Source: a virus
Lineage: Duplodnaviria; Heunggongvirae; Uroviricota; Caudoviricetes
Reading direction: 5' to 3' (one strand)
DNA: 64,000 nt
IMG/VR virus record: IMGVR_UViG_2861079508_000001
The notes below the pieces were generated by a model. The model was not told the DNA's origin. It saw only the letters and a list, made by a program, of their open reading frames with translations, and made no database searches. Of the stretch, positions 1 through 27,298 are shown piece by piece. Position 1 is the first letter of the stretch; the number at the start of each line of letters is the position of its first letter. The position numbers and the translations under genes were made by a program.

Positions 1-1095
1 ATGTCCACAAAAAATAAAAAAGGTAAAAATAACAAAGAAGTAGAAGATAACATCGACAACTTTGAAGAAGGTTCCCTTGAATTGTACACAGGGGAACTTG
101 TCCCTAATAGCAACAATACAGTCCAACCAATTGCGTTGATGCGACTGGGGTTGTTCGTCCCCACGCTTAAGGGAACAAAATACAGTAAACGTAACAAGCC
201 AAATGAGATCGATGCTTCAAAGGAGCTTGTCCAGCTCGAAGTAGCCCGTTCTGAAGGCTATTCCGATATCAAGATAACCGGTCCTCGTCTCGACATGGAT
301 CATGATTTCAAAACGTGGGTGGGCGTTGTGCGTTCGCTGGCAGAATACGGCGAACCTAACGGTCGTGTCGAGTTAAGCATCACGAAATTTGCGAAGTTTT
401 GTGGCTATCCATCGTCACAGATCCGCAAAACACTCCGCGACCGGCTTACAAACAGTCTTTTGAAGATCATGCGTACAACTCTGTCTTTCCAGAGAACGTA
501 TGAAGAAAAGAACGTCGACGGCTCTAACAAGATCTCGCTTCTGATGGTGCACCTCATCAATAGCGTGGACTACAACGAGCAGAAAGATACGGTGGTGTTC
601 TATGCAGAACCGAAGCTGGCCGAACTATATCGCTTTGACCATAAGGTTCTTTTGCAGTTAAAGGTTATCAATAAGCTACCACGCAAAGAAACAGCACAGG
701 CTCTGTACACCTTCATCGAAAGTCTTCCAACCAAGCCTGCGCCGGTATCGCTTGCTCGATTGCGTGCGCGACTCAATTTGAGTAGCAGGAATGTCAGCTC
801 GCAGAATCAGACTATACGTAACGGCTTAAAAGCTCTCCAAGATTTGGGCTATCTCGAATACAGCGAGATTAAGCGTGGGCGGTCGATCTATATCCAGATT
901 CACAGCCGCAATCCAAAACTCAAAGTCGCACCGCCAAAACCTGAAGACATCGAACCCAAAAAACCAGATGAGAAAGCCGGGGAAATTGATGCCAAACAGA
1001 ACATTATCAATAAGATAACCGAACTTTCGCAGAATTTGACGCCTGAAAATATCAAGATGATTGAGATCCTTTCCAATAGTCTCAAACTGCTTTGA
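1..1095 (+). CDS. repA: RepA-type iteron-binding plasmid replication initiator (P1/P7 RepA-like)
   Basis: 364-aa ORF starting at window base 1; segments SNNTVQPIALMRLGLFVP, DIKITGPRLDMD, ALYTFIESLP and HSRNPKLK match P1 RepA as I recall it; followed directly by iterons. Confidence 0.85.
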   Translation: MSTKNKKGKNNKEVEDNIDNFEEGSLELYTGELVPNSNNTVQPIALMRLGLFVPTLKGTKYSKRNKPNEIDASKELVQLEVARSEGYSDIKITGPRLDMDHDFKTWVGVVRSLAEYGEPNGRVELSITKFAKFCGYPSSQIRKTLRDRLTNSLLKIMRTTLSFQRTYEEKNVDGSNKISLLMVHLINSVDYNEQKDTVVFYAEPKLAELYRFDHKVLLQLKVINKLPRKETAQALYTFIESLPTKPAPVSLARLRARLNLSSRNVSSQNQTIRNGLKALQDLGYLEYSEIKRGRSIYIQIHSRNPKLKVAPPKPEDIEPKKPDEKAGEIDAKQNIINKITELSQNLTPENIKMIEILSNSLKLL

Positions 1096-1096
1096 T

Positions 1097-1212
1097 ATGC
1101 TGTCAGCGGTGAAATGTATGCTATCAGCGGCTATTTTTCTGAAAAGTATGCTGTGAACGGTTAAAGATATGCTACCAGCGGTATAGTGAGATGAACGTAT
1201 GCTGTGAGCGGT
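1097..1212. repeat. iteron array 1: five direct ~14-bp repeats ATGCT(G/A)(T/C)(C/G)A(G/A)CGGT, starts 1097/1118/1148/1169/1199
   Basis: read directly; same orientation; alternating 21/30-bp spacing; begins 2 bp after repA stop. Confidence 0.85.
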
Positions 1213-1374
1213 AAATCATCTATCACCACTCAATGCTCTGCCATACCTCCCCAGTGGTTACTAACCTCGAAGAGTGCATTCCATATAGGTTTGCGCTCAC
1301 TAACATTCTATTGCTATTGCGCTGATTGCTTGTAGTGAAAGGCATTTATTGCCTGCTACTCCCTGATAGAATGT

Positions 1375-1627
1375 ATGCTGTCAGCGGTGTTTTATTGAGG
1401 AATTTTTGTTTGGATATGCTATCAGCGGTAATTAATGGTATATGTCAGACCTTCGTATGCTGCCAGCGGTAATTTTGTTCTGGTTATACCCATACCGGGA
1501 CACATTATTCATGCAATGTCTTAAGTATGCTGTCAGCGGTAAAAAATCGAGTAAAGTATGCTGTGAGCGGTGAGATAGACTCTCGATATGCTATCAGCGG
1601 TAGTTGATTGTGTATGCTGTCAGCGGT
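1375..1627. repeat. iteron array 2: seven more copies of the same iteron (starts 1375,1416,1457,1527,1558,1588,1614)
   Basis: read directly; incA-like copy-control locus by analogy with P1. Confidence 0.8.
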
Positions 1628-1642
1628 GACGACTATGAAATA

Positions 1643-1666
1643 TGACTGCGGAACGTGCCGCAGTCA
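1643..1666. terminator. hairpin TGACTGCGG-aacgtg-CCGCAGTCA after the iterons; possible terminator
   Basis: perfect 9-bp inverted repeat; weak T-tract. Confidence 0.35.
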
Positions 1667-1674
1667 GTTTGCAT

Positions 1675-1887
1675 TTAGTGTATTTTCTTTAACAGACCCC
1701 AAAGTGTTCCGGCTTTTGTAGTCAGTTTTCCTGTTTCTGGATCGTACATACGCCATTCACGCCGCTGGTGGACGATATACCCATCTTCACGTTCCAGACG
1801 CTCAAGAATGCCAGGCTGCTTGAAACCCTTAGCACGCCAGTAGCCGCTTGTTTTCTCGATTTCCAGACCTGCCAGTGTTAATGCCAT
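1675..1887 (-). CDS. hypothetical protein (70 aa)
   Basis: ORF in track; stop overlaps start of upstream gene; no recognisable motif. Confidence 0.4.
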   Translation of the reverse strand: MALTLAGLEIEKTSGYWRAKGFKQPGILERLEREDGYIVHQRREWRMYDPETGKLTTKAGTLWGLLKKIH

Positions 1888-2222
1888 TACCCAACCTCCT
1901 TGCAGTCATCGAAAAGGTAGCTGTCGTTCTTCGCGTGAACGCCGTATACATCACCCGATTTGTTGTAAACGAACCTATCTTTACCTACGCCAGATAGTTC
2001 GCCGTTACGTTTAGTGAGAAACGGGGAAGACAGGACGCGATCATCGCGTACCACATAAAACTGTTCGCCACGGTCCACAACCATCGCGCCGTAATTAGCT
2101 TTAACGGCGTTGCGGATCAGGCCGTTTTTCGCTTCGACCACAAACATTTCGCACTCATAGACATGTGTGTCCGCAAAGACGGGGAGAGTGAGCAGCGCCA
2201 GTACCAGGGCTGTTTTCTTCAT
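1887..2222 (-). CDS. secreted hypothetical protein with N-terminal signal peptide
   Basis: N-terminus MKKTALVLALLTLPVFA is signal-peptide-like; 111 aa. Confidence 0.5.
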   Translation of the reverse strand: MKKTALVLALLTLPVFADTHVYECEMFVVEAKNGLIRNAVKANYGAMVVDRGEQFYVVRDDRVLSSPFLTKRNGELSGVGKDRFVYNKSGDVYGVHAKNDSYLFDDCKEVG

Positions 2223-2436
2223 GCCACGACTCCTTTGAAAACGCCTAATGCTGAGTCGAAGACCAGTACTACGGCCAGCGCATTGATCATCACATCATTA
2301 ACAGGCGCCAGCGCTTTACGGATTGCCCCTGTGAAGATGCAGTCGAGCACAAAGGCTATCGAGATAATAAGTAACGTGATATCTAATAAAATTTTCACGA
2401 TAGGTAAATGCTAACTTATATATTTTGCTGTAAATA

Positions 2437-2775
2437 TCACTCAAAAGTGCTGATACCCAAAATGCGCTCAAGATGGGCCGCGTCTTCATCGCTTACCAGC
2501 ATTGTGTCGTCTACGTACCAGCAGCTACCGTTGTGCCAACAAACACCGTCATCATCGATATAAATAGAATCCGCATCCATTCCTGTGTATTCAACTAGAT
2601 TGCGTTCAATTGCCGCTTGAATTTCTTCATCGTTCAGCCCGTCGCACTTGATCATGAACAACGGGTAAACGTCATAGTCGGTACTAGATGAAATGCGAAC
2701 CAAAGTCTTCATGTGTTTTCTCCTTGTTGGTAAGTACTTATCTATCTTAATGGGCGCTATAAGGCGCACAATCAT
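2437..2775 (-). CDS. hypothetical protein; real start probably ATG at 2712 (MKTLVRISS...)
   Basis: GGAG ribosome-binding site a few bases upstream of the ATG at 2712; track start is a longer alternative. Confidence 0.4.
   Translation of the reverse strand: MIVRLIAPIKIDKYLPTRRKHMKTLVRISSSTDYDVYPLFMIKCDGLNDEEIQAAIERNLVEYTGMDADSIYIDDDGVCWHNGSCWYVDDTMLVSDEDAAHLERILGISTFE
2729..2746. promoter_or_regulatory. motif B (inverted ATAAGT/ACTTAT hexamers) upstream of 2437..2712 gene
   Basis: GGTAAGTACTTATCTATC read directly. Confidence 0.4.
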
Positions 2776-2891
2776 TGTGTTCAGGCTGGTGGAAAGAACT
2801 TCTCCAGCGTGTGGTTGATAGCCTTATCAATGTGCATCAGGTGCCAGACGACCATATCTTTGCTTCCAATGCCGCGAGTGTAGATGAAGTG

Positions 2892-6610
<3,719 letters not shown>

Positions 6611-6624
6611 AATTGTAAGTTCCC

Positions 6625-7788
6625 TTAATCAAAATTCTTCTGTTTCATTGCCTCAGCCGCTTTTTGCAGCGGTCCTTTTAAGGCTTTTTCTAACTTTGTC
6701 ATCTGCTCTAAGTGCCACGCAACCGCTTGGGGCCAAGTCTCTTTGTTAAACCCGTCAGCTTTGGTCGAAAACTGGATACGGCAAGATTTCTTCTCATCCA
6801 GCCTCATCCACTCAAGTTCTGCACCAAAAGTATGCTCAATGTCTTGTTTGGACTGACTCAACAAATCAAAAAGGTATTTATTCTCTTCGGTAACCCCACG
6901 GCTGATCCAAAGCTCTACTCGAAGCTCTTTTTGCAGAAATATCAGGTTATACGGACATCCACTTAGCCCTGAGCCTGCTGATAACCAATGATCTTTGCTT
7001 GGGCTAATGTTGTTATAGAGTTGGCAAGAGCTTTTCTGAAACGCCTCTAAGGCACGCTCCCAGTACTCGCGACGCACGGTATGGCGGTTTTTTAGTACCA
7101 CTTCGGTGGTTTTTTCTTCCGCTTCCTTGGCATTAATGCCGATCATCAACTCTTTCGCTTCTGGCGTTGGAATGATCTGGTCAATATTAATCAGTAGCTG
7201 TTCACCCAGTGAATAAGGCGTGATTTTGAAGCAGGCAATGCTAATGCCTTGACCCAATAACCACAGCGCGGTGCTGGTCACTTCTTTGCGAAAGTTTGCC
7301 GCAACTAACATAATGCGCTGGCTGTTACCCAGGTTGAGCTTTAACTCATCGAGATCGGGCGCATCCAAAAACTCACATATTCTAGCAGAGGCACTTGCAG
7401 GGGTATTAAACAAGTCAACCTCTCCTGTTACAGGCTCATAGCGGTCTAAGTACTGCTGGTAAATTTCAACGATTTGCGCTTTGGTTAAACTTGCGCAGTA
7501 GGAGGCATATTTAAGCGCCTGCCACACCACATCGCGGCCACTGTCGTCCAGCTTGTTTTCAATAATGACCAAGTTGCCATCTTTATCCAGTGCCAGTAAA
7601 TCTAAGCGTTCACGGGTGTCATCAAAGCCATCGAACTCTTTTTGAATAATCAGCAGCTCTTCACCCAGTGCGGAAGGCTCGTGTGCCAACCATTCCTGAA
7701 GATTTTTGCGCTCAGTAAAGCCCAACTCACTGAATCTCTTCGTCTTAACCGGACTAATCCTGTTGGTCTGATGATTTACCGTGAACAT
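6625..7788 (-). CDS. PD-(D/E)xK nuclease-like protein embedded in the type I R-M operon (DUF4268-like)
   Basis: 387 aa; N-terminal LDLLALDKDGNLVIIENK fits a D...ExK nuclease motif; 9-14 bp gaps to hsdS and hsdR; family assignment from memory. Confidence 0.5.
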   Translation of the reverse strand: MFTVNHQTNRISPVKTKRFSELGFTERKNLQEWLAHEPSALGEELLIIQKEFDGFDDTRERLDLLALDKDGNLVIIENKLDDSGRDVVWQALKYASYCASLTKAQIVEIYQQYLDRYEPVTGEVDLFNTPASASARICEFLDAPDLDELKLNLGNSQRIMLVAANFRKEVTSTALWLLGQGISIACFKITPYSLGEQLLINIDQIIPTPEAKELMIGINAKEAEEKTTEVVLKNRHTVRREYWERALEAFQKSSCQLYNNISPSKDHWLSAGSGLSGCPYNLIFLQKELRVELWISRGVTEENKYLFDLLSQSKQDIEHTFGAELEWMRLDEKKSCRIQFSTKADGFNKETWPQAVAWHLEQMTKLEKALKGPLQKAAEAMKQKNFD

Positions 7789-7797
7789 ATTCGCTTC

Positions 7798-9126
7798 CTA
7801 TTGCTCAACCATTTCTGGGGTGATCTTGATTTTTCCTGTCACGGCGCTGTTGATCAGGGTGGTTTTATATTCTTTAAGCTTTTCGATTTGTATTTTTTGA
7901 TACTCTATAGCTCGCTCAACATCACCATTTAATCTGTTAATGTACGTAATAATTCCATCTCGTTCATTTTTAGAAGGGGGGAAAGGCACAAAAATGCTAT
8001 TAAGATTCCCCACTGTAAGCTGATTAATTGTTGATGTAAGAAATGTCCCTGATAACATTTTGAAAACATCACTATTTAGAATGCAAAATAAATACTCATT
8101 GTGTTTAGATCTGAATACCGTAGTAAAGGCCCCGAAGCTGTTTCCCTCATCAGCGTCAGATACAAATGCACACTTGCCAATTAGGTCTCGACTTCCATTC
8201 CTGGAGCATATCAAAATATCACCTTTTTTAAGCTTTAAGTGCTCAGGAATAAAGCAATTGACATAAACATTTTCCTTTTCACCATACTTAAACTTCCCTT
8301 CGTATAAGTTTGATGATCGCGCAACTAGAGTTCCGCCTTTTTCATCACTTAAATCATTTGGCGAATAAGTTAACCCAATGATCGATTTACCAAGATATTT
8401 TAACCTCTTAACGTCCCAATGCGCTGGAATCTTACCAATCCAATCCACACCGGAGTCTTTCATTGGCACATTGGGATCAAGCCCTTGGGTCACCGCCTGT
8501 TGGATGATGATCTGCTTACGCTCTTTCAGCAGGCTAATTTGCTGCTCTTTGATCGAAATCGCTTCGTCGATTAGAGCGGTTTTCTTGTCGAGGAAGCAGG
8601 CAATTAGAAGTTGTTCCTCGGTTGGTGGCAAAAATACCAAGGCTCGTTTTAATTGAGGCCAATATAGGTTTCTCTGAATTGTTCCTACACCTTTTGAGCT
8701 AACTAAGTAATTAGCCACCATTGCCCCATCTCTGAACAGATAGTTACCAAAGCGGGGAACTATATCTTCCGATAAAGAAAGAACTAAGTAAGCTGGGCTG
8801 ACTATTCCTCGGTAATCAGAAACACCGACTGAACCACGCCAAGCTTGCTGATTATTTAAAACAAAGTCACCTGGATCTACCAACTGATACTTAGTCAGAT
8901 CCGAACTGGTTGTATTTGTACGTTTTGCATCAACGTCATCGAATTTTATTACTCCTTTGTCCAAATAGACTGATAGAAGCTCTTCATTTTCATTATTAGA
9001 AATAGATTTTAATTTTGATTTTGCGCACAAAGGAAATGAATTCCAGTGAACTGGTATGGCCCCTATCCATTCAACACCTGAATCTTTATAAGCCTCATAT
9101 TTCGGCATTTCAGAAATCTTCATCAT
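7798..9126 (-). CDS. hsdS: type I restriction-modification specificity subunit (HsdS), two target-recognition domains
   Basis: 442 aa; duplicated (V/I)(E/D)WIG.IP.HW signatures at N-terminus and mid-protein; between hsdM and hsdR. Confidence 0.85.
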   Translation of the reverse strand: MMKISEMPKYEAYKDSGVEWIGAIPVHWNSFPLCAKSKLKSISNNENEELLSVYLDKGVIKFDDVDAKRTNTTSSDLTKYQLVDPGDFVLNNQQAWRGSVGVSDYRGIVSPAYLVLSLSEDIVPRFGNYLFRDGAMVANYLVSSKGVGTIQRNLYWPQLKRALVFLPPTEEQLLIACFLDKKTALIDEAISIKEQQISLLKERKQIIIQQAVTQGLDPNVPMKDSGVDWIGKIPAHWDVKRLKYLGKSIIGLTYSPNDLSDEKGGTLVARSSNLYEGKFKYGEKENVYVNCFIPEHLKLKKGDILICSRNGSRDLIGKCAFVSDADEGNSFGAFTTVFRSKHNEYLFCILNSDVFKMLSGTFLTSTINQLTVGNLNSIFVPFPPSKNERDGIITYINRLNGDVERAIEYQKIQIEKLKEYKTTLINSAVTGKIKITPEMVEQ

Positions 9127-9132
9127 AACGAC

Positions 9133-11592
9133 TTACCCCTGAACCTTTTTTACTTCCGCACCAAGAATCTGCGCAATCAAACCTTCGGCTTTTTGTTCTA
9201 GGTTGATGATGTCGGTTGCGACCTCTTCTAAACTACGCAGCGGTTTATGACGGTAGAAATACTTATTGAAGCTGATTTCATAGCCAATTTTTACCGTATC
9301 TAGGTTTATCCATGCTTCATCGACATGAGGCTTCACTTCATCTAGGAAGTACTGGTAAATGCTTTGCTTTAATGGAACAGATTCTGTATCTCGCAGGTCT
9401 GAATTGGTCTCGTAAGTGATATACTCGCCTTTTTTACCGCCTTCTGCTGAAGGAACGGGGTAATAACCAAAATCTGGCAAGTCAGCGACTTCACACTCAT
9501 AGCGCTCCAGCAGGTCGTTTAATTTATCACCCGTTAATTTAACTACCTTTTTAACCACTTTCTTGGCGGTTTCGTCATACCAGCTCACCGCGTGAAGAAT
9601 GGCATTTTTCTCAGGTGCTGAAAGCTTAATAGCATGGGCTTTTAGCGATTTATCAACTTGGGTTTTAAAGCTATTGAAGTCATCAAATTCAATGCTACCG
9701 ATGTCAGCCATCAGCGTTTGTGCAGTTTCAAGCAATGCTTTTAGCGCCAGCCAGTGTTTCACATCAAGCAGTTTGGCCTTAGCCTTAGCATTGAGACTGA
9801 TGTCGTTATCTTCACACCAAGAAAGAATGTCTTTCTCGATGGATTTTAAGAAGCTCTTTTTCTGATCTGACCCGTAGCCAGTTTTTTCGTAAACACGTTC
9901 GCCGTGCTCTGCGTACACGTACTCCATCACTTCACTAAGTTGCTTATCAAAACGCAGTGGGGCTATGGCATCTTGAGTAAACTTGGCTTTGCGGCGATCT
10001 GGGCGCTCGATAGTGACTTTGTAGTAGCCAAAATCGTCATTGCTGAATACCTTACTGGCGATGCCAACAGGATCATTGTTTGCATCCAGTGCTCTTTCAA
10101 CATCCTTACACGCGAGGTAAGTATCGGTAATTTCCGTGATGTGCTCAGGCGCAAATTCGCAGTTTTTGTTACCTAAGTTCTTGCGCAACTTACGGTAGAG
10201 CAAGCTGGCATCAATTAATTGCACCTTACCTTTACGCGCCTCAGGTTTATTGTTGTTCAACACCCAAATGTAAGTGGTAATGCCAGTGTTATAGAACAGG
10301 TTATTAGGTAACTGAACGATGGCATCTAGCATGTCGTTTTCAATGATGAAGCGACGAATATTACTTTCGCCACCGCCCGCATCACCGGTAAAGAGCGATG
10401 AGCCGTTATGAACAGAGGCAATCCGGCTGCCTAATGGACTTACGCTCGGATCTTTCATCTTGTTGACCATCTCCATTAAGAAAAGCAGCTGGCCATCACT
10501 CGAACGTGGCGTGGCATCCACCACTTCGAGATTTCCCCAATAGTCTTTCAGGCTAACCTTAAAACGCGGGTCAATCACATCGCTGCCGTCTTTAATGTAC
10601 TTCTGTTCAGACGCCCAACTCTTACCGTATGGCGGGTTAGACAACATAAAGTCAAAGCGAGAAGCCGCAAACTCGTCGGTAGACAAGGTTGAGCCTACCT
10701 TGATGTTCTCAGGGTTGTTACCTTTGATCATCATGTCCGATTTACAAATCGCGTAGGTCTCGTCATTGATCTCTTTGCCGTAAAGGTAAATATCTCGGCT
10801 GTCGTTCGGGTATTTCTCTTCAATGAAGTTTTGAGATTCAGTGAGCATACCACCGCTACCACACGCAGGGTCGTAAACGGTCATGGTCAATGGTAGCTGC
10901 TCTTTCACTGGGTCAAAAACCAAGTGTGTCATCAGCTCAATCACTTCCCTAGGTGTAAAGTGCTCACCGGCTTCTTCGTTATTCTCCTCGTTGAACTTAC
11001 GGATCAACTCTTCGAACACGTACCCCATACCCAGGTTAGTAAGGGCTGGCATCTTGTTGCCATCTGGGTCTTCGATCGTTTCATGAGTTAAGTTGATGTA
11101 AGGGGAAACAAACTTTTCGACGACATCAAGAAGGACTTGCTTTGAGGCCATGTGACGAATTTGCGACTTGAGGTTAAAGCATTCAATGATTTCTTTAACA
11201 TTATCGCTAAAGCCAAGCAGGTACTCTTCAAAGTTGGCGAGTAATATCTGTTGGTTATTCGTTGCGGTGTTGAACAGGGATTTCAGGGTCCATTTAGATG
11301 TATTGTAAAAAACATAACCACTAGCCGCCTTCAATGGTTCATCATCAAGCTCCGTGGCTTGCATCTCTTCTTTTTGGAACTTGACCTCTTCAAGCACGGC
11401 TTCTTTGGTGGGTTCAAGTAACGTATCTAAACGTCGTAATACCACCATAGGTAAAATCACATCGCGGTACTTACCGCGAACGTACACATCACGTAAACAG
11501 TCGTCGGCAATGTTCCATATAAATGAGATGAGCTTGTTATGTACACTATGATCCATTTTCTTTTCCTGTTCAGTGTTGGTTGCACCCCACAA
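9133..11592 (-). CDS. hsdM: type I R-M N6-adenine DNA methyltransferase (HsdM) with long C-terminal extension; start probably MDHSV (about 11556)
   Basis: AdoMet motif DPACGSGGML and catalytic NPPYG; N-terminal IWNIADDCLR HsdM-N signature; about 800 aa versus roughly 520 typical. Confidence 0.85.
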   Translation of the reverse strand: MWGATNTEQEKKMDHSVHNKLISFIWNIADDCLRDVYVRGKYRDVILPMVVLRRLDTLLEPTKEAVLEEVKFQKEEMQATELDDEPLKAASGYVFYNTSKWTLKSLFNTATNNQQILLANFEEYLLGFSDNVKEIIECFNLKSQIRHMASKQVLLDVVEKFVSPYINLTHETIEDPDGNKMPALTNLGMGYVFEELIRKFNEENNEEAGEHFTPREVIELMTHLVFDPVKEQLPLTMTVYDPACGSGGMLTESQNFIEEKYPNDSRDIYLYGKEINDETYAICKSDMMIKGNNPENIKVGSTLSTDEFAASRFDFMLSNPPYGKSWASEQKYIKDGSDVIDPRFKVSLKDYWGNLEVVDATPRSSDGQLLFLMEMVNKMKDPSVSPLGSRIASVHNGSSLFTGDAGGGESNIRRFIIENDMLDAIVQLPNNLFYNTGITTYIWVLNNNKPEARKGKVQLIDASLLYRKLRKNLGNKNCEFAPEHITEITDTYLACKDVERALDANNDPVGIASKVFSNDDFGYYKVTIERPDRRKAKFTQDAIAPLRFDKQLSEVMEYVYAEHGERVYEKTGYGSDQKKSFLKSIEKDILSWCEDNDISLNAKAKAKLLDVKHWLALKALLETAQTLMADIGSIEFDDFNSFKTQVDKSLKAHAIKLSAPEKNAILHAVSWYDETAKKVVKKVVKLTGDKLNDLLERYECEVADLPDFGYYPVPSAEGGKKGEYITYETNSDLRDTESVPLKQSIYQYFLDEVKPHVDEAWINLDTVKIGYEISFNKYFYRHKPLRSLEEVATDIINLEQKAEGLIAQILGAEVKKVQG

Positions 11593-11764
11593 AGTTGCTG
11601 CAACGGCTTCACTATAAATTTAAAATTCTGTTCTTTCTGTAACGCCTAAATGGCCGCTACATCGTTCGATTAACTTGTTCTACCCGGCGCTAGATTTAAG
11701 TTTATGACACCATAAAGTGAATCGCCACAGGTTTAACAGACACCTCAGAGTCATTTAAGATGAC

Positions 11765-11956
11765 TTAAAGAGAGGTGTACAGCTCGGTATTCAGACCAGT
11801 CCACTGACGGCCAACGCCGACAACTTCACCGATACCTTTGTCTTCACCCAATTTGTTTACTTTGATGCCAACGTACCCAGGCTCAACACGATCGCAGCCT
11901 GTAAGACCCATTGTGCAAACAGCAGCCACGATCACTGCCAGTAAACCTTTCTTCAT
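11765..11956 (-). CDS. small lipoprotein (63 aa)
   Basis: N-terminus MKKGLLAVIVAAVCTMGLTGC has a lipobox. Confidence 0.5.
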   Translation of the reverse strand: MKKGLLAVIVAAVCTMGLTGCDRVEPGYVGIKVNKLGEDKGIGEVVGVGRQWTGLNTELYTSL

Positions 11957-11959
11957 TAC

Positions 11960-12160
11960 TTACTTCCCCTTCGAATTAATTAGTGACTTCAGAAAGTTAC
12001 GACCAACATTAAAGCCGATAACAGGAGCGCCAAAAGCAACAATGATTCCAAGCATTACGGCAATATCGCTTTTAGCCGAGATCAGCGACGGAACCAGCAA
12101 ACAGTAGATGAAAACTACAGATATACCTGTAGCCACTGCCATCAGATAGAGTTTGATCAT
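11960..12160 (-). CDS. small integral membrane protein (66 aa)
   Basis: two hydrophobic helices; 4 bp from the lipoprotein gene. Confidence 0.45.
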   Translation of the reverse strand: MIKLYLMAVATGISVVFIYCLLVPSLISAKSDIAVMLGIIVAFGAPVIGFNVGRNFLKSLINSKGK

Positions 12161-12250
12161 GTGTTTTCCTATGTGGCTATTGTGTGTAGATGGTGAGTAA
12201 GTGTTTATATATTTTCAAGGTATAAAGGCGTCCATTCGGACGCCTGAAAA

Positions 12251-13324
12251 TTAATCTTCTAATTCATCTGTCGGTGATGTCTTCTCGCGCCTGTCATCTA
12301 TTGCCTGTAACGCAGCAATGATTTCAGCTAATGGCTTCTCCCGGTACATCTCGACGATCTGTGATTTGGTGTATTTCTTCTCGCCAATTTCCACACGCCC
12401 GCTGGCGCTCTTGGGCAGGTATCCTTCCTCCAGCATGTATTCAACCAGAGACTCGACGACGTCCAGCCCGCGAGTCGGGTCGAAGTAGAATTTCCATGAG
12501 CATTTGCCAAACGGAGGCGCGACTTTGTTTTTAATGCACTCGGCGCCAACGTCCTGTCCGATCTTCTCTTTGCCATCCTTCATGACGGATGCACCCAGAC
12601 GGATGCGCACCGACGCGTAGAACTTCGGAGAGTCGCCACCCGGAGACGTAGTCGGATCGCCAAACATCACACCAATTTTGGTACGCACCTGGTTCAAGAA
12701 GATGATGCACGCGTTGTACTTACGCGCCCAAAGCGCCAGAGTAGGGAAGTTCGCACTTGTCGCGCGCGCCAGCGCCGTGTTGTCGTTCATGTTCAGCTGA
12801 TCTTTGTCTTTCGCAGTGCCTTCTGCCATCTTGTCGAACTTCTCAGCCTTCGAGTTCGGAACCATCGACGCCAGAGAGTCGGCTACGATGCAGATAGGGG
12901 CTGTTTCCGGAATAAGCTCTTCGTCGCGCACCAGCTTGAGGATTGTGCCGATCAGCTCTACGGAGTCTTCGAAGGTATCCGGCTGTTTGTAGACCCACTG
13001 ACCGTCATCCTCATCTGCGTTCAGGCCATTGGCTACAGCCAGGCCAACGTCAAAACTGTTTTCATGATCGAGGAATACCGCCAGACCATCTTGTTTTTGA
13101 GCGGAGATCATCGCTGCTGTTGCAAGGAACGTTTTCCCTGCACTTGGAGGACCGAATACTTCGACGATACGACCACATGGGAAGCCGCCATCGTAACGAC
13201 CAGAAATAGCTTTGTTTAACGGTGGAAAGCCTGTATCAATCCAATAAGTTACTTTCTGAATTTCGTCGTTGCTACCGATTTTCTTTTTCAGAGCAAGTGC
13301 CAGTGCGGATTTTCCTTTTGCCAT
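12251..13324 (-). CDS. RecA-family recombinase (UvsX/Sak4-like)
   Basis: 357 aa; Walker A GPPSAGKT; RecA-like core. Confidence 0.7.
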   Translation of the reverse strand: MAKGKSALALALKKKIGSNDEIQKVTYWIDTGFPPLNKAISGRYDGGFPCGRIVEVFGPPSAGKTFLATAAMISAQKQDGLAVFLDHENSFDVGLAVANGLNADEDDGQWVYKQPDTFEDSVELIGTILKLVRDEELIPETAPICIVADSLASMVPNSKAEKFDKMAEGTAKDKDQLNMNDNTALARATSANFPTLALWARKYNACIIFLNQVRTKIGVMFGDPTTSPGGDSPKFYASVRIRLGASVMKDGKEKIGQDVGAECIKNKVAPPFGKCSWKFYFDPTRGLDVVESLVEYMLEEGYLPKSASGRVEIGEKKYTKSQIVEMYREKPLAEIIAALQAIDDRREKTSPTDELED

Positions 13325-13326
13325 GA

Positions 13327-13599
13327 TCAGGCTCCTTTTGTTTCGTTGATTCGTTTTAAAGCGGCGGATTCGTCGAATACAATCGCATCGTGGTTAAGGA
13401 GTCTGGATACACGAGCGAGGATTTTTACGACCTGCTCGCTGACTAATCCAAACTCGCGATCTGTCGCTTTCATTCCGGCAGCGCCTAGAATTGACGGCAG
13501 TGCGATGACAGCGTACTCACCGTGATAAAAGACAATCTCTTTTGCCAGTTGGGCAGGGGTGGTTGTAGCGCCATTGATAATCGATTTAAGCATTAGCAA
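13327..13599 (-). CDS. hypothetical protein (90 aa)
   Basis: ORF between exonuclease and recombinase genes. Confidence 0.35.
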   Translation of the reverse strand: MLMLKSIINGATTTPAQLAKEIVFYHGEYAVIALPSILGAAGMKATDREFGLVSEQVVKILARVSRLLNHDAIVFDESAALKRINETKGA

Positions 13600-14588
13600 T
13601 ACCTTTCGAATGGAAGAACAAACACTTCAAGGTCTTCAAGGAACGAACGGAAATTCAGCTCGTAGCACAGTTGCTCGAATGCTTTCACGTCACGATTGCC
13701 TTTGATTGTTTCGATTTCGGTAGGCGGAAACTTCGTCTCAATCAGGTTCATTAGCGTGATGTTTCTCTTGAACGCTTCGAGCATTCGACAGCCTGTTTTC
13801 TCGTTGAAGGCATTCTTCGCTAGTTTGTTGAAGGCGGTCTTATGGCGTCCTTTGTCAACCACGATTGAGCCGTCGTTGATGCCGCGTACCATCGTTGCGA
13901 CACTTCCCCATTCATGCAGCAGCTCTTTCGCACCGCCAGCACCAATGCCACCAACACCGCTAATGTTGTCCGATTTATCGCCTTGTAATGCTTTTGCTTC
14001 CAAAAATGCGCGAGGAGTAGCGAATCCTGTCAGCTCCGCAAATTGCTCAAAATTAACCTGCTTGTTTTTGGCGTCTTCGCGCAGGCTTACCCAGCTTACG
14101 TTTTCGCGAACTAACTGAAGCCAGTCGCTATCGCCTGTTAACAGATAGATGTGTTCAACGATTGGCTGCGGTGCAATGCTGGCTACCAGCAGCCCGGCCA
14201 GATCATCCGCTTCTGCATCTTTTGCAATGAGTTGGGTAACTCCAAGCGCGGTCATCATTTTGAGGATGTATGGCTTCTGGATAGCAAAGCCTTCCTTCAT
14301 CTTTTTCATATCAGGATCGTCGTCGCGATTTGCTTTGTAGTCCGGGTAAAAGTCGCGACGCTTGTCACTAAATCCATCCCAAAGAATCATAGGTCGGGCA
14401 TGGAGGATGGAGGCATAACGACGGACGTTCTTAACAAAGCCGAAAGCAGCCTGTACTTCCATTTCGCCGTTGTGCAATTTGTCAGATTGTTGGTGGTAAT
14501 AACCCAGGCTATTGCCATCTACGAAGAGATAATTCACCGGTACATTCCTTCCAAAAAGTAAGGCGTCCGTAGACGCCTTACTGGTCAC
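13593..14588 (-). CDS. 5'-3' exonuclease / flap endonuclease (T5 D15 / T4 RNase H-like); real start probably downstream of track start
   Basis: NYLFVDGNSLGYY N-terminal, LLTGDSDWLQL and GDKSDNISGVGGIGAGGAKEL helix-hairpin-helix motifs. Confidence 0.8.
   Translation of the reverse strand: MTSKASTDALLFGRNVPVNYLFVDGNSLGYYHQQSDKLHNGEMEVQAAFGFVKNVRRYASILHARPMILWDGFSDKRRDFYPDYKANRDDDPDMKKMKEGFAIQKPYILKMMTALGVTQLIAKDAEADDLAGLLVASIAPQPIVEHIYLLTGDSDWLQLVRENVSWVSLREDAKNKQVNFEQFAELTGFATPRAFLEAKALQGDKSDNISGVGGIGAGGAKELLHEWGSVATMVRGINDGSIVVDKGRHKTAFNKLAKNAFNEKTGCRMLEAFKRNITLMNLIETKFPPTEIETIKGNRDVKAFEQLCYELNFRSFLEDLEVFVLPFERYC
14551..14580 (-). terminator. intrinsic terminator after SSB gene (stem TAAGGCGTC-cgta-GACGCCTTA, then CTTTTTGG on the minus strand)
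   Basis: read directly; lies inside the over-extended 5' end of the track exonuclease ORF. Confidence 0.55.
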
Positions 14589-14597
14589 GTAATGGGA

Positions 14598-15626
14598 TTA
14601 CAGAGAGTCCAGCTCTCTCAGTAGGTCATCCAGACCTTCATCTTCCGTCGCAGATGCGGCTGCTACAGATGTCGCTGCGACTGCTTCAGACTCTTTGACT
14701 GATACTGCAACGGCAGCGGGACTTGCTTCTGGTTTAAATTCAGTTTCAACGGCACGGAGGATTTCTTCATCAACCAGACTGGTTGGTTCAGAAGCTGGGG
14801 TATGAGCGGTAGCTACAGCAGTCGCACCCTCCGTATGACCAGTGACAGAGCCAAATCCAGGTAGTGCCGCAGCCGATGTTTTCGCGGTTGAGGAAATTGC
14901 TGGTGCAGATGCTGCGGCAGTTGGTGCAGCGATGCCAATCAGACGACCCATAGTGCGAACTGTCGACAGAAGACGAGTTTCATCAGCCTGATTTGCGTAT
15001 GCGATCAGATCATGCTGGGTGTTCCAGAATTTATCTTCGATATCGCCTTTGTAGACTTTACGCTTAGGCGAGACGTCATATTTGGTATCGCGACCAGAGC
15101 CAGTACGTTTAATCAGGAATGCGTAGCCTTCCTCTTTGCTCAGTGGATTGCCGATATCATCAGCGATGTCTTCGGTGATTGCTTTGCAGATATCATCGAA
15201 TACAGTAGACGGCAGCTCGATTAACTGGCATTTCTCAGCATCTGCGAAATCCTCACGAGCAGAAAGAATGCCGTTGACCAGGTAGCGAGGAGTGGCACGC
15301 ATTTGACCGATGCGTTCTTCCATTGCTTTGTTACCCTTGTGACGAGCGCGACCTTCCATCACCATTTCGCATAGCTGACAAGCGCGACCGTGAGTATGTT
15401 GCTCACAAATATAAGCGTTGGTTGCTTCTTTACCTTCCTCGTTCTGATACTTAACGTAGTGCATACCGAAAGTCTGGAAGAACTTACCGTTTGGGTCGTC
15501 TTTATTCGGGAAGATGCGGATATAGTTGACGCCGTCTTTTAAGCGAGTCAGATCAACGTTGTTACCACGTTTGGCGGCAATGTCTTCACGAGTTTTGTTA
15601 AGCAAATCAAGTAATGTCTTAGACAT
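14598..15626 (-). CDS. single-stranded DNA-binding protein, T4 gp32-like
   Basis: GVNYIRIFPNKDDPNG and zinc-site-like CEQHTHGRACQLC resemble gp32; Ala/Ser-rich linker; acidic C-terminus EDEGLDDLLRELDSL. Confidence 0.55.
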   Translation of the reverse strand: MSKTLLDLLNKTREDIAAKRGNNVDLTRLKDGVNYIRIFPNKDDPNGKFFQTFGMHYVKYQNEEGKEATNAYICEQHTHGRACQLCEMVMEGRARHKGNKAMEERIGQMRATPRYLVNGILSAREDFADAEKCQLIELPSTVFDDICKAITEDIADDIGNPLSKEEGYAFLIKRTGSGRDTKYDVSPKRKVYKGDIEDKFWNTQHDLIAYANQADETRLLSTVRTMGRLIGIAAPTAAASAPAISSTAKTSAAALPGFGSVTGHTEGATAVATAHTPASEPTSLVDEEILRAVETEFKPEASPAAVAVSVKESEAVAATSVAAASATEDEGLDDLLRELDSL

Positions 15627-15709
15627 GTGTTTCTCCTTGTTGTGATTTGGCCGATGGCGCTATGCGCGTTGGGCTTTCGTTCATTCGTGGCTCTTTCGAG
15701 CTGTTAAAT

Positions 15710-15738
15710 GATAGATCAGTACTTACTTATTATCTATC
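15710..15738. promoter_or_regulatory. motif B upstream of SSB gene
   Basis: GATAGATCAGTACTTACTTATTATCTATC. Confidence 0.4.
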
Positions 15739-15743
15739 AAAAA

Positions 15744-16199
15744 TCAACGGGGAGTAATAAAGCGTTCAGAGCCTAATCGCTCTAATTCAACGATGGCCAT
15801 CTTTGACGCCTGAACGATCATGTCTCGGCGATGCGAAAAGGCGGCGACAGCATGTTTGTATATGTCTGCGATGTGCCGTGCTTCATCCAACTTCTGCCTT
15901 TTAGACAGATACTGTGGGTTTGTTTTAACCTTAGCGTCCAGTACAGATTCGTTGAACTTAATGCCGTTCATACTCAAGTTCTTACGCTCTGTGTCGTATA
16001 GCTTTGCTTCAACAGCTTCAAGGTTAAGTTTTGCCTCTGCGACACTTCTTTCTGCATGAGCGAGTTTTGAGCCATACTCCATTAAAAGGCGGGGTTGTCT
16101 ACGCCAGACTTCCTCCAGATTGTCTCGGTCAAACTCGAGATCAGACATTATTTTCTCGTAAATATCGGCGATCATGCACATTTCCTTATCACTTATCAT
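15744..16199 (-). CDS. hypothetical protein (151 aa, predicted helical)
   Basis: ORF in replication module; no motif recognised. Confidence 0.4.
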   Translation of the reverse strand: MISDKEMCMIADIYEKIMSDLEFDRDNLEEVWRRQPRLLMEYGSKLAHAERSVAEAKLNLEAVEAKLYDTERKNLSMNGIKFNESVLDAKVKTNPQYLSKRQKLDEARHIADIYKHAVAAFSHRRDMIVQASKMAIVELERLGSERFITPR

Positions 16200-16300
16200 T
16201 TTGTATTGATTATATCATTGTAATGATGAGGCAATGAGCTTGAAGATAGGGGGGTGAGGGGATAAGGGAAAACATGGCCTTTATGGCCATGTTTATTGGA

Positions 16301-17470
16301 TCACGTCTTAATAGTTTCTGCTACGTCGGCTAATATCGCTTCTAGTCGTTCTCCCTCTTCAGGTCTGAAGTAAAGAATGTTGGGGTTAAACCCGTAAAAG
16401 ACAGTAACGTCAAGGTCTGGAAGATACTCCTTCCTGCCGACCAAATCGGATGGCTTGTTTTTGTTGTTAAACAATGAAGTTGCCCGGCTGCCACACGTCA
16501 GCACATAGGTCGGACGCACCAGATTGATCTCTTCACGCATAAAGTCGGTGAACTGGCCGATCTCGTCTTTGGTGTAGTCTTTTTCTTTGTCTTTAACCTT
16601 CTTGCAAACACCTGTGACATAGAGATCGCCCATGCGTAAATCTCCAGCCGTCAATAGCTTGGCCTTAAAGTCGTCGTATCCGTTCTCCATAAAGTAACCG
16701 GTTCGAGCATCATTGCCGTTCGCATTGTCCAGAATGATCATGATTTTCGGCTTAATACCAATGCTGGGGCGGATTAGTTCATCACCTAAGCCCATTTCAG
16801 CCGCCATCCGCGTCATGAGTACGTTAATTTCAGCCGAACGTTTGGGGTTCATCTCAAACGGACGTGAGGCTTTAACTGCGTCTATGACAAGGTTTCCCAT
16901 CAATTCAGCCTGGTCGCGTAGGCGCTCTGGATCAGTTGCTGGCAGACTGCCTGGCTCGATGGATGCAAACGCCCCTACTTTTTGCAGCGATTCGCGCACT
17001 CGACTATTACAGGCACGTTTCTCGACAGCTTCTTCGAATTGCGCCAGTGACTCGAATTTGCCGCCAACTTTTTCTCGCGCTCTCATGATGGCTTGGCAGC
17101 CATTCTCAGAACACCCCTTCACAGCAGAGAAGGGCGCATACAGCACCTGGCTGCCATCTTCAAGCGTGCGGATCTCGATTCGGTTAGATGACACGTTAAC
17201 GTCTGGTGGCAATACGCGAATGCCATAGGTCAGCGCATCTTTAACCAGCCCCTGGTGTTTATCTTCGCCAAGAATAGTGAGAGCAGCAGCGAAAAACTCT
17301 GCGGGATAATGAGTTTTCAACCACATAGATTGATAACTGATTAAGGAGTAAGCAACAGAGTGTGATTTGTTGAAGGCATACGCGCCGGATTTCTCAAACA
17401 TATTCCAGATTTCTTCGGCTCGTTCGTGCGTCAGGCCATTGCTCTCTTCGACAACACCGGTAATTTTCAT
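16301..17470 (-). CDS. dnaE: DNA polymerase III alpha (DnaE) C-terminal fragment
   Basis: starts at the conserved FNKSHSVAYSLISYQSMWLKTHYPAEFFAA region; ATG overlaps HNH stop (ATGA). Confidence 0.8.
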   Translation of the reverse strand: MKITGVVEESNGLTHERAEEIWNMFEKSGAYAFNKSHSVAYSLISYQSMWLKTHYPAEFFAAALTILGEDKHQGLVKDALTYGIRVLPPDVNVSSNRIEIRTLEDGSQVLYAPFSAVKGCSENGCQAIMRAREKVGGKFESLAQFEEAVEKRACNSRVRESLQKVGAFASIEPGSLPATDPERLRDQAELMGNLVIDAVKASRPFEMNPKRSAEINVLMTRMAAEMGLGDELIRPSIGIKPKIMIILDNANGNDARTGYFMENGYDDFKAKLLTAGDLRMGDLYVTGVCKKVKDKEKDYTKDEIGQFTDFMREEINLVRPTYVLTCGSRATSLFNNKNKPSDLVGRKEYLPDLDVTVFYGFNPNILYFRPEEGERLEAILADVAETIKT

Positions 17471-18201
17471 GCAGTCACCTCATCAATCTTCACGAACTCA
17501 TACCCATTGGAGGCCAGCCAGTTCCGTTGGCGCTCCCAGCTCCATATCTCTTCACGCATTTCACTATGCAGGCGAATGTGGGCGTCTTCTGGAAGTGCTA
17601 CAAGATTCCCAGGGGCGTTATCTATCGTATCGCGGTTAATATGGTGGACATGTTCATCGTCACGTAGCTCCCGACCGAGACGTTCTTTCGCTATCAATCG
17701 ATGAACGTATTCGTATTGCGAAACGCCATTGTTACCAACCAGCTGCATCATGTAGCCGTTGGTTTTTACGATGATGCCACCTTTGTAGTTGTTCGCTTCT
17801 TCTCCGATCTTTCCGCGTTTGGCAGCCGCCAGCTTTTCCTTCGTCTCCGCGCGGATTGTTCTGCCGGTTAGCTTTTTCGAAACGGTAGCCACTCGCTCAT
17901 CGATATCAGCACGCAGACCGGCATTCCACGAGGTTTTCCCATACATAGGGTTGCCAGTGCCAGTCCGGGCTTCGGAGAGACGCTTCATACGTTCGTCATT
18001 ATTTTTGTTTTTGCCACGATTCCAGGCTGGGGTAGCGGAGATCCGCGCGCTTCCGCGCCTGATCCCCCATTTGGCTAATAAGCGGTCAATATTTGCCTTG
18101 CTGCAACCAGCTTCGGCGGCAATGTCTTCTTTTCTCATCAGGTCAACCATGTAACGCTGACGTAACCATTCTTCTGTGATTTTGTACTTCGTACTCGGCA
18201 T
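17467..18201 (-). CDS. HNH homing endonuclease, free-standing, inserted within dnaE
   Basis: C-terminal HNH motif EHVHHINRDTIDNAPGNLVALPEDAHIRLH; N-terminal helix-turn-helix-like and NUMOD-like segments. Confidence 0.8.
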   Translation of the reverse strand: MPSTKYKITEEWLRQRYMVDLMRKEDIAAEAGCSKANIDRLLAKWGIRRGSARISATPAWNRGKNKNNDERMKRLSEARTGTGNPMYGKTSWNAGLRADIDERVATVSKKLTGRTIRAETKEKLAAAKRGKIGEEANNYKGGIIVKTNGYMMQLVGNNGVSQYEYVHRLIAKERLGRELRDDEHVHHINRDTIDNAPGNLVALPEDAHIRLHSEMREEIWSWERQRNWLASNGYEFVKIDEVTA

Positions 18202-18215
18202 TTCTAAGACTCACT

Positions 18216-18232
18216 AAACAAATTGTTTTCTT
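18216..18232. promoter_or_regulatory. motif A (AAACAAATTGTTTTCT) upstream of HNH / dnaE-C operon
   Basis: near-palindrome 15-30 bp upstream of start codon. Confidence 0.4.
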
Positions 18233-18249
18233 ATCTTATAAATTAATTC

Positions 18250-20613: not shown

Positions 20614-20791
20614 GTGTTTTTACCTTTCTGGTTTTTTTGATTTTGTCATTGGGGAAGCCTACGAACTTCCCATGCATCGAAATCGCAACTTCTTTTGCTG
20701 ATTGGTGACAATCGGGCTTGTCTGGACACACCAGACAAGCCTTACCTGTTTCAGAAGCAGCGATAAGAGAGCCGAAACATCCTTTACGCAC
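20588..20791 (-). CDS. small Cys-rich hypothetical protein (67 aa)
   Basis: CLVCPDKPDCH zinc-ribbon-like cluster; overlaps dnaE start by 26 bp. Confidence 0.3.
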   Translation of the reverse strand: MRKGCFGSLIAASETGKACLVCPDKPDCHQSAKEVAISMHGKFVGFPNDKIKKTRKVKTHEGTDGSN

Positions 20792-20793
20792 GA

Positions 20794-22029: not shown

Positions 22030-22090
22030 GCGTTTTTCCTTTGTTCTCTAATGAGCGTTCAACTTCTTATATAAATATATCATTATATAT

Positions 22091-22109
22091 CGTAAGTGGT
22101 TACTTATCG
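22091..22109. promoter_or_regulatory. motif B upstream of cobS-like gene
   Basis: CGTAAGTGGTTACTTATCG. Confidence 0.4.
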
Positions 22110-22124
22110 TTAAGGCTGTTTTGT

Positions 22125-24233: not shown

Positions 24234-24252
24234 GGCTAATCCTTTGTTATGA

Positions 24253-24268
24253 AAACAAATTATTTACT
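24253..24268. promoter_or_regulatory. motif A variant (AAACAAATTATTTACT) upstream of cobT-like gene
   Basis: 20-35 bp upstream of ATG 24233. Confidence 0.35.
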
Positions 24269-24331
24269 AGTGTGTTTAATGTAGCACTGCGCGAACAGGG
24301 AACTAAGCCATTCGCGCAGGGAGAAGAGGGG

Positions 24332-24544
24332 TTAACAGATTCTGACGGCTAAAGACCCGGAGCCGATATTGAGAAGCGTGAAGCGTTTGTTGTTAAGTTC
24401 GAATATAAAGCCAGTTGTGTCATTCACACCAACCTGAATCTGCTCATTCGGTAGATCGGTGAGGATGTCAGCTACACACTCATCAGCTAATTTCTGTACG
24501 TGTCCGATCTCAAGAGCGATTAGGCTGGAAATAGTGGTGTTCAT
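24332..24544 (-). CDS. hypothetical protein (70 aa)
   Basis: ORF only. Confidence 0.3.
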   Translation of the reverse strand: MNTTISSLIALEIGHVQKLADECVADILTDLPNEQIQVGVNDTTGFIFELNNKRFTLLNIGSGSLAVRIC

Positions 24545-24795
24545 TCAATCAATCCATTCTAACTTATACTATGGTAAGGAATACTACTAAAATTTATATC
24601 AATACTGAATACATTCATATCATATGCAAGTTAATTTTCTTACCTGTTTTGGGCTAATTTTTCTCCGTGCAATGGCCTTTAACCGGTCTTTTAAGTGCCT
24701 ATCGAAAAAAATGATAATAGCTTTACAACCCTAACCTTTGATGTAATATCGGTAAGCACTTACCAGAGAGAATTGAACGCGCAAAGGTTGTAACA

Positions 24796-26280: not shown

Positions 26281-26530
26281 ATGACAATCACCGAGTTACG
26301 CCGATGCACTGTATAAGTAAACAGTATATTAGGCATAGATTCTTATAGGATCAAGAGTAAAAGTAACTCATTTTCAGTAATGATTCCATACATAGTAGGT
26401 ATGGAATCATTGTAGGCCTTTTTTATAAAATCTGTGATTCTTCTCAGGATAAATTATCTAAACTAAAAATTGTGTTTTGTGTTGGCATCTGCTTGAATAG
26501 ACGCATGTTTATTCAGATATGGAATAATCA

Positions 26531-27269: not shown

Positions 27270-27298
27270 AAAGGCCTATATGGGCCTTTTCATTTTTA
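27270..27298. terminator. bidirectional intrinsic terminator (AAAGGCC-tatat-GGGCCTTTT plus T-run)
   Basis: read directly between convergent genes ending at 27269 and 27296. Confidence 0.6.

Follow-up and report, generated by a model that had tools for sequence, protein, structure and literature searches.

The PDC families comprise genes that sit inside BREX, DISARM or type I restriction-modification (R-M) loci and are defined by "guilt by embedding" (Payne et al. 2024, bioRxiv 10.1101/2024.01.29.577857). One of these families, PDC-S11, is a bioinformatic candidate without an assigned mechanism. Nested nucleases that complement a modification-blocked system are represented by TgvAB and by BrxU/GmrSD, which are found in type I R-M or BREX loci. 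In VPI-2 of V. cholerae, the slot between hsdS and hsdR is occupied by TgvAB, a GmrSD-like type IV system whose restriction of hypermodified T-even phages does not depend on the nuclease activity of HsdR (PMC11411939).

Another line of work led to MdgA (modification defence gene A), which was identified by functional metagenomics (Cell Host Microbe 2025; PMC12366544; bioRxiv 10.1101/2025.02.28.640651). T4 and Mu carry the modifications targeted by MdgA, glucosyl-hydroxymethylcytosine and Mom-modified adenine, respectively: the protein protects against Mu as well as T4, but not against T4-GT7, whose cytosine is unmodified, and GT7 DNA is a far poorer substrate than T4 DNA for purified MdgA, whose activity is abolished by the E77A substitution (PMC12366544; bioRxiv 10.1101/2025.02.28.640651). 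MdgA is sufficient as a single gene, the only other named ORF on the metagenomic insert being a dehydrogenase, adh_short_c2 (bioRxiv 10.1101/2025.02.28.640651). Its DUF4268 domain was called "a potential substrate recognition motif" by the authors (PMC12366544; bioRxiv 10.1101/2025.02.28.640651). MdgB, in which DUF4268 is combined with PD-(D/E)xK, has the same phenotype, with protection against T4 but not GT7 (bioRxiv 10.1101/2025.02.28.640651). DUF4268 is also found as a C-terminal fusion on some GmrSD enzymes; MdgA, MdgB and the GmrSD fusions are three lines that tie this domain to type IV restriction. Our literature search found no follow-up work on MdgA.

The locus described here lies in a 64,000-nucleotide stretch of DNA (the window) from a tailed-phage record, IMGVR_UViG_2861079508_000001. 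The ORF list of the window has four consecutive minus-strand genes in the order hsdM-hsdS-X-hsdR. The type I methyltransferase subunit is encoded by hsdM (9133..11556, minus strand; the annotated start is an ATG, and the longest ORF extends up to a TTG at 11592). Its product is matched by Pfam HsdM_N and N6_Mtase (E=2e-60) and by PADLOC MTase_I (E=3.5e-268), and it is annotated in CP057685.1 as a SAM-dependent DNA methyltransferase. The specificity subunit gene hsdS (7798..9126, minus strand) is matched by Pfam Methylase_S and PADLOC Specificity_I (E=1.8e-128), and the product of hsdR (3593..6610, minus strand), the restriction subunit with nuclease and translocase functions, by Pfam HSDR_N, SWI2_SNF2, ResIII and T1R_D3-like and by NCBIfam TIGR00348 hsdR (E=2e-62). 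According to Pfam, NCBIfam and PADLOC, the neighbours of X are thus a complete, bona fide type I set. Gene X itself (6625..7788, minus strand) encodes a 387-amino-acid protein with a NucS-like PD-(D/E)xK nuclease domain and a DUF4268 domain, and belongs to the PDC-S11/MdgA family. The original prediction, which was made from the sequence alone, had placed a 387-residue ORF between hsdS and hsdR with gaps of 9-14 bp, and that is how the ATG-started frame reads: 9 nt lie between the hsdS stop codon TAG (7798-7800) and the ATG of X at 7788, with a Shine-Dalgarno-like GGAAG that overlaps the hsdS stop ahead of this ATG, and 14 nt separate the X stop codon TAA (6625-6627) from the ATG of hsdR at 6610. 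Because all four genes share one strand, the gaps are tiny, and a consensus scan found no promoter-like or terminator-like sites in either the hsdS-X or the X-hsdR junction, it is reasonable to expect that hsdM, hsdS, X and hsdR are co-transcribed. A leader or promoter region upstream of the operon (11557..11717, minus strand) travels with the cassette, as judged by its blastn similarity to copies in SXT/R391 ICEs. At the other, hsdR-distal end, the cassette is abutted by an ORF with transposase-like sequence, recognised by eye (2892..3578, minus strand). This ORF lies outside the system and marks the cassette boundary, because homology to the ICE copies stops at window position 3500.

X is an abundant gene. 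In a 90%-clustered database we scored 7422 homologues at E<=1e-5, and 5541 representatives of 50%-identity clusters were found at E<=1e-3, including 477 at E<=1e-30. The dN/dS ratio was 0.04-0.055 against three copies with approximately 96% nucleotide identity (comparisons with L021 and L027 were left out as invalid due to indels, and that with L026 because it was saturated and dS was undefined). This value, about 0.05, indicates strong purifying selection on X. The DUF4268 score given below, the 5541 cluster representatives and the low dN/dS show that X is more than a chance ORF.

The PADLOC model PDLC04913 for PDC-S11 matches residues 1-383 of X over profile positions 1-373 of 375 (E=1.8e-182), and seven more PDC-S11 models in PADLOC match it as well. 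X is therefore a PDC-S11 member by its end-to-end match, as a single gene and by its location inside a type I R-M operon. The embedding argument behind the original prediction had already been applied systematically to the family of X in the PDC work; what we add to PDC-S11 is the link to MdgA and a structural description.

X is a two-domain protein. In an AlphaFold2 model built from a 74-sequence alignment (mean pLDDT 94.8, pTM 0.76), an alpha/beta domain spans residues 1 to ~207, a long helix residues 209-251, and an alpha-beta-alpha domain residues ~265-383. The N-terminal nuclease domain (residues 1 to ~207; 7168..7788, minus strand) is of the PD-(D/E)xK, NucS_C-like type, and the long connecting helix between the domains (residues 209-251 by DSSP on the AlphaFold model) is encoded by 7036..7164 (minus strand). 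The catalytic motif block D63 ... D68 ... E77-N-K79 ... Q90-x3-Y94 corresponds to 7507..7602 (minus strand). It includes the peptide LDLLALDKDGNLVIIENK (residues 62-79, with D63, E77 and K79), which was quoted in the original prediction as a PD-(D/E)xK-like signature near the N-terminus and proved to be just that. In an alignment of 74 homologues at 30-60% identity, no variation was seen at E26, D63, K79, Q90 and Y94, and conservation was at least 90% at D68 and E77; X thus has a conserved PD-(D/E)xK/QxxxY centre. The family profile aligns the motif block with residues 159-192 of P. abyssi NucS, such that D63, E77 and K79 match positions 160, 174 and 176. We take D160, E174 and K176 to be the catalytic residues of NucS as described by Ren et al. 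(2009). The predicted structure, which combines a restriction-endonuclease-like alpha/beta core with the D...(D/E)xK residues, places X in the PD-(D/E)xK superfamily. The check by structure prediction that had been proposed along with the original prediction hence found a nuclease fold, both in the AlphaFold2 model and in the alignment with the NucS profile.

NucS (EndoMS; PDB 2vld and 5gke) is the best structural and sequence neighbour of X, with the same nuclease fold and the same D-ExK-QxxxY block, which raises the question of whether X might be a mismatch-repair endonuclease of the NucS/EndoMS type, or another housekeeping nuclease, that came to lie in the operon by chance. The similarity is distant, however: phmmer of X against PDB sequences gave no match, NucS being reached by the family profile only, and Pfam NucS_C has no match in X at E<=0.01, although it reaches or exceeds its threshold in two relatives. 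The NucS equivalog model NF003270 aligns X residues 16-101 with NucS positions 118-201 at 23.9 bits, so far under its cutoff of 216 that X does not count as an orthologue of NucS. What the two proteins have in common is just the nuclease domain, which is C-terminal in NucS, and X has a DUF4268 domain whereas NucS does not. X presumably also lacks the N-terminal DNA-binding and dimerisation domain and the clamp-binding tail of NucS. The genomic settings differ as well, NucS being a repair enzyme and X lying in a mobile defence context: X is distributed on ICEs, plasmids, phage-plasmids and defence islands, and is present in just 58 of 5426 complete E. coli genomes (39 chromosomal and 19 plasmid copies). 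A role in repair or housekeeping is therefore very improbable.

The C-terminal DUF4268 domain (PF14088; residues 238-372; 6673..7077, minus strand) was identified at 136 bits (E=1.1e-39) over profile positions 1-138 of 140, far above the Pfam gathering score of 27 bits, in agreement with the earlier suggestion of a DUF4268-like protein. That suggestion had treated the PD-(D/E)xK signature and DUF4268 as one architecture; both are present, but as two separate domains (residues 1 to ~207 and 238-372). The domain has a fold like that of type III secretion chaperones and YbjN, with secretion chaperones and YbjN proteins as the closest structural matches. It is unlike the folds of established modified-base readers, namely SRA, EVE/YTH/PUA and the winged helix of the McrB-N type. 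A Providencia homologue of X (L011) has another C-terminal domain; the idea that this domain is EVE/PUA-like found no support in Pfam and was dropped.

MdgA and X have the same composition, a single polypeptide with a NucS-type PD-(D/E)xK nuclease followed by DUF4268. The correspondence extends to the catalytic site. The primer used to make the E77A substitution in MdgA, GTTATTGTTGCAAACAAGCTAGATGAT, encodes V-I-V-[A]-N-K-L-D-D, and X reads V74-I-I-E77-N-K-L-D-D, with the glutamate at the identical residue number; in P0065, a natural variant 98% identical to X, the sequence at position 74 is VIVENKLDD itself. The MdgA start-codon primer contains TAT AAG GTA AAT ATT, which encodes Y-K-V-N-I, and a family representative 41% identical to X (P0171) starts with the matching MYKVNI. 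The homology of X and MdgA rests on the stated domain architecture and these two primer-encoded peptides; their identity is probably about 40%, and specificity could differ. The wild-type MdgA 27-mer had no match in JGI metagenome contigs, and a homologue search seeded with P0182 returned no protein having both MYKVNI and VIVENKLDD. The settings of the two genes also differ: MdgA was recovered on an insert from a human faecal metagenome and assayed as a lone gene, whereas X lies in a type I operon, in a cassette of ICEs and a phage-plasmid.

The explanation that we consider probable is that X, although nested in a type I operon, acts autonomously and as a single polypeptide, as a modification-dependent (type IV-like) restriction endonuclease of the MdgA/PDC-S11 family. 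The N-terminal NucS-type PD-(D/E)xK domain would cleave DNA through a metal-dependent centre formed by D63, E77 and K79, with Q90 and Y94 as a putative RecB-type motif, and the C-terminal DUF4268 would limit cleavage to DNA with bulky phage hypermodifications. By analogy with MdgA, we infer that X cleaves hypermodified phage DNA. That DUF4268 serves as the selectivity module, or substrate sensor, of X is a conjecture, because its fold is unlike that of established modified-base readers.

A nuclease linked to DUF4268 could also work in a way that does not depend on modification. For example, X might be a Shedu-like or abortive-infection-like effector, in which DUF4268 holds the PD-(D/E)xK domain inactive until an infection cue (such as free DNA ends, a phage protein or replication intermediates) releases it to degrade phage and/or host DNA. 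We consider this unlikely: MdgA separates T4 from T4-GT7 not only in vivo but also as a purified protein on naked DNA, where a cue is unneeded, and DUF4268 recurs on GmrSD type IV enzymes.

The remaining question is whether X is tied to the type I enzyme. The original prediction held that the family is often linked to type I systems, and to examine its neighbourhoods we compared 80 loci, one per species, containing relatives at 54-98% identity to X; the search was seeded with a 16-sequence alignment, and HsdM, HsdS and HsdR were called by iterated profiles built from the window proteins. The order hsdM-hsdS-X-hsdR was found in 34 of the 80 loci. In six others hsdM-hsdS-X was found and hsdR was not seen (four of these have less than 3.1 kb of contig beyond X), X follows hsdR in four (hsdM-hsdS-hsdR-X), and in three it adjoins hsdR only. 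Consequently, the relatives of X adjoin same-strand type I genes in 47 of 80 loci (59%), which bears out the predicted linkage. Five loci have another arrangement with type I genes nearby, and in one the X ORF was uncalled. In the other 27, a type I gene is absent within ~8 kb, several of these contigs being shorter on one side; stand-alone relatives of this kind include L015 and L016, at 93% identity, as well as L017, L020, L032, L033 and L037. The association of X with type I genes is thus strong, yet not obligatory.

The type I partners vary as well. Relatives at 74-98% identity that accompany the same type I family have HsdR proteins ~82% identical to that of the window, but two members of this identity class (L025 and L035) follow hsdR in unrelated type I families, with HsdR only 21-25% identical, and a clade at 55-65% identity is embedded in another type I family, with HsdR ~25% identical. 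Among plasmid-borne copies, one that is 54% identical to X lies inside a type I operon, and one that is 62% identical shares its slot with a Fic gene. Another, at 51% identity, is present in ~230 records of Klebsiella plasmids; inspection of a single record, an IncFII plasmid, showed this copy next to SIR2 and ATPase genes and a Tn3-family transposase, with no type I genes in the vicinity. In other species, the slot between hsdS and hsdR holds extra genes beside X, which encode GmrSD_N/GmrSD_C pairs, Fic, RhuM-Fic, Abi_2, Schlafen AlbA_2 and a NERD-helicase with a TOTE domain. The GmrSD-like pairs beside X homologues are separate genes and were found in three species (L026, L027 and L046). Such a pattern is what one would expect of an autonomous module that uses a permissive, co-expressed slot, and not of a dedicated subunit.

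These data bear on the possibility that X is an accessory or guard of the type I enzyme, which either binds HsdR or HsdM or acts as a PrrC-like back-up when Ocr, ArdA or Stp-like proteins disable type I restriction. PrrC and RloC occupy the same kind of slot in type I operons as X, and PrrC, an ABC-ATPase tRNA nuclease silenced by the type I enzyme and switched on by its inhibition, is nearly always embedded in type I systems. This precedent, the tight operon position with gaps of 9 and 14 nt, the order hsdM-hsdS-X-hsdR in 34 of 80 relatives and the adjacency in 47 of 80 all speak for such a role, and the adjacency leaves room for some functional coupling. On the other hand, X has neither the PrrC domain set nor an obligatory type I partner: searches with Pfam, NCBIfam and PADLOC detected no ATPase or anticodon-nuclease features in X, and no HsdR, HsdM or HsdS domains. 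Moreover, 27 of 80 relatives, some at 93% identity, lack a nearby type I gene, and the type I partners of X come from at least two families, whose HsdR proteins are only ~25% identical; X is also found after hsdR. Finally, MdgA was sufficient alone on its metagenomic insert, and its expression host, MegaX DH10B, lacks hsdRMS. We therefore regard an accessory or guard role as improbable. The original prediction had proposed an accessory restriction or anti-phage module. The anti-phage part agrees with the full-length PDC-S11 match and the MdgA precedent; a role as a type I subunit or accessory is less favoured than that of an autonomous nuclease.

As an autonomous modification-dependent endonuclease, X would divide the work with its neighbours. 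The type I enzyme, HsdM2-HsdS-HsdR2, would attack unmodified DNA that lacks the host m6A mark, and X would attack phages that escape the type I enzyme by base hypermodification. Since it is co-encoded with an m6A methyltransferase, X would have to ignore simple N6-methyladenine. Placed in one transcription unit, the two complementary barriers would be expressed and horizontally transferred together. X resembles TgvAB and BrxU/GmrSD as a nested nuclease of this kind, but its machinery is different: GmrSD consists of a DUF262 ParB-like NTPase and a DUF1524 HNH domain, whereas X is a PD-(D/E)xK protein without an NTPase, and Pfam detects neither DUF262 (GmrSD_N) nor DUF1524 (GmrSD_C, HNH) in it. 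In addition, TgvAB requires two proteins, whereas X is a single polypeptide.

A more far-reaching idea, which we offer tentatively, is that DUF4268 represents an unrecognised class of hypermodified-DNA reader with a type III secretion chaperone/YbjN-like fold, unrelated to the SRA, EVE/PUA and McrB-N readers. The hsdS-hsdR junction would then be a plug-in slot in which readers of this class, fused to a portable NucS-type nuclease, give type I cassettes a second specificity. An extension of this idea, in which X is physically or kinetically coupled to translocating HsdR, is less likely.

The family was already catalogued as PDC-S11, MdgA is a characterised relative, and the logic of type IV inside type I or BREX is published, so that current understanding is not overturned by X. 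What novelty is left lies in the way in which DUF4268, with a chaperone-like fold, would work, and in part in the very wide spread of this exact cassette. As a well-folded and abundant orthologue, X would be a convenient model for substrate recognition by DUF4268. If X restricts hypermodified phages, then ICEs and the phage-plasmid are guarded on two fronts, against unmodified as well as hypermodified DNA, which would bear on phage therapy and gene flow.

At 100% identity, the window matches pRHB17-C18_2 (CP057685.1), a non-mobilizable E. coli plasmid of 112 kb with a RepB replicon. Its backbone is that of an SSU5-like phage-plasmid, with genes for tail fibre, tape measure, DNA polymerase, DnaB, primase and ligase, and shares 95-97% identity with Escherichia phages CMS-2020a, PhiR41_1 and Cyrano, and 81% with SSU5. 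The cassette had no match in the phage collection that contains the records of these four phages. It is shared with ICEs: DNA similarity between the window and ICE copies covers exactly 3500..11717 at 92-96% identity (blastn), except for the target-recognition regions of hsdS, where alone the cassette departs from the ICE copies. The shared part thus consists of the four genes and a leader of ~125-160 nt, without brxR, and the cassette is mobile. A protein 98% identical to X (P0072) is recorded in 1454 index blocks, and the six places listed for it are all in hotspot 5 of SXT/R391 ICEs, between rumAB and traI. Hotspot 5 of the SXT ICE is a documented phage-resistance determinant in V. cholerae, including in epidemic cholera. 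The hotspot 5 copies have a BrxR-type WYL regulator before the operon and a CBASS system after it. The four-gene cassette is thus very widespread, and copies with at least 97% protein identity were found in Vibrio cholerae, V. parahaemolyticus, Proteus, Providencia, Salmonella, Alteromonas and E. coli.

The junction between hsdS and hsdR looks like a general slot for the insertion of defense genes. In three other species, genes with GmrSD_N and GmrSD_C domains, resembling those of TgvAB (the GmrSD-like type IV system that sits between hsdS and hsdR in V. cholerae VPI-2), are found directly after the X homolog and ahead of hsdR (L026, 9161..12507; L027, 9273..13227; L046, 9155..12522); in L026 and L046, they form a pair. 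Thus, two different putative type IV nucleases would be encoded within a single type I operon in these loci. Other genes that we detected beside X homologs at this junction encode Fic, RhuM-Fic, Abi_2, and DUF6615 proteins, as well as a Schlafen AlbA_2 domain together with HATPase_c_4, and a NERD-helicase that carries a TOTE TBP-like domain (loci L053, L067, L076, L077, L078, L080, L083, L042, and L073).

The window (1..64000) has the backbone of an SSU5-like phage-plasmid and matches E. coli pRHB17-C18_2 at 100% identity; most of it is occupied by phage genes. On one side of the cassette comprising the type I genes and X (3500..11717) lies a repB-type initiator (window start..1095), and on the other side lies a RecA/UvsX-like gene (12251..13324). 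The cassette had no matches in the 'phages' collection, which includes the close relatives of the backbone, CMS-2020a, PhiR41_1, Cyrano, and SSU5. Elsewhere in the backbone, the DNA polymerase gene is closely followed by two genes with a 4-nt overlap (16301..18201, minus strand), which encode a protein annotated as a uracil-DNA glycosylase, unusually long for this annotation (389 aa), and an HNH endonuclease.

In the SXT/R391 ICE hotspot 5 loci (L002-L007; e.g., L002, 5212..18781), a BrxR-type WYL regulator is encoded ahead of the operon, and behind the operon come two genes of no known function and then a CBASS system with a SAVED-HNH effector and a DncV-like cyclase. In contrast, brxR was lost from the phage-plasmid copy, and therefore expression of the cassette may be unregulated there. 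Also missing from the window is what lies beyond hsdR in the ICEs, namely a gene encoding 361 aa, a faint match to MarR_2, and CBASS. An ORF with transposase-like sequence, recognized by eye, adjoins the hsdR end of the cassette (2892..3578, minus strand). Because similarity to the ICE copy ends at position 3500, exactly at this putative transposase ORF, IS-mediated capture or truncation is suggested.

The nuclease module of X also occurs without a recognizable DUF4268 domain. In proteins encoded on a Providencia plasmid (L011, 6001..7086) and a Haloarcula plasmid (L012, 5998..7053), and in nine further family representatives (P0183, P0187, P0203, P0215, P0226, P0230, P0239, P0255, and P0259), the shared module (residues 1 to ~230; 41-60% identity in bacterial examples, 34% in Haloarcula) is joined to several C-terminal domains of ~130-150 aa that are unrelated and have no match in Pfam. 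This suggests that the nuclease module is portable and its sensor domains are exchangeable; some of these C-terminal domains may be highly divergent DUF4268. Conversely, P0173 (726 aa), P0205 (536 aa), and P0228 (739 aa) contain three to five tandem DUF4268 domains as their sole significant Pfam domain, with no nuclease detected; a scaffold, a decoy, and a sensor are possible roles.

An X homolog with 51% identity was found in ~230 Klebsiella plasmid records. In one of them, the K. pneumoniae IncFII plasmid pGMI16-006_2 (L008, 27..5376), it stands alone, apart from type I genes, and its neighbors encode a SIR2-family protein and an ATP-binding protein, possibly another defense pair, and a Tn3-family transposase.

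Among viral predicted structures in BFVD, the only Foldseek match to the X model at E<=0.001 was G3MBC4, the 296-aa protein Gp54 of Bacillus phage G (E=2.7e-9 over 349 alignment columns), and the DUF4268 half of X is matched by the PHROG family phrog_27742 (E=2.7e-17). Thus, X-related proteins are encoded by phages.
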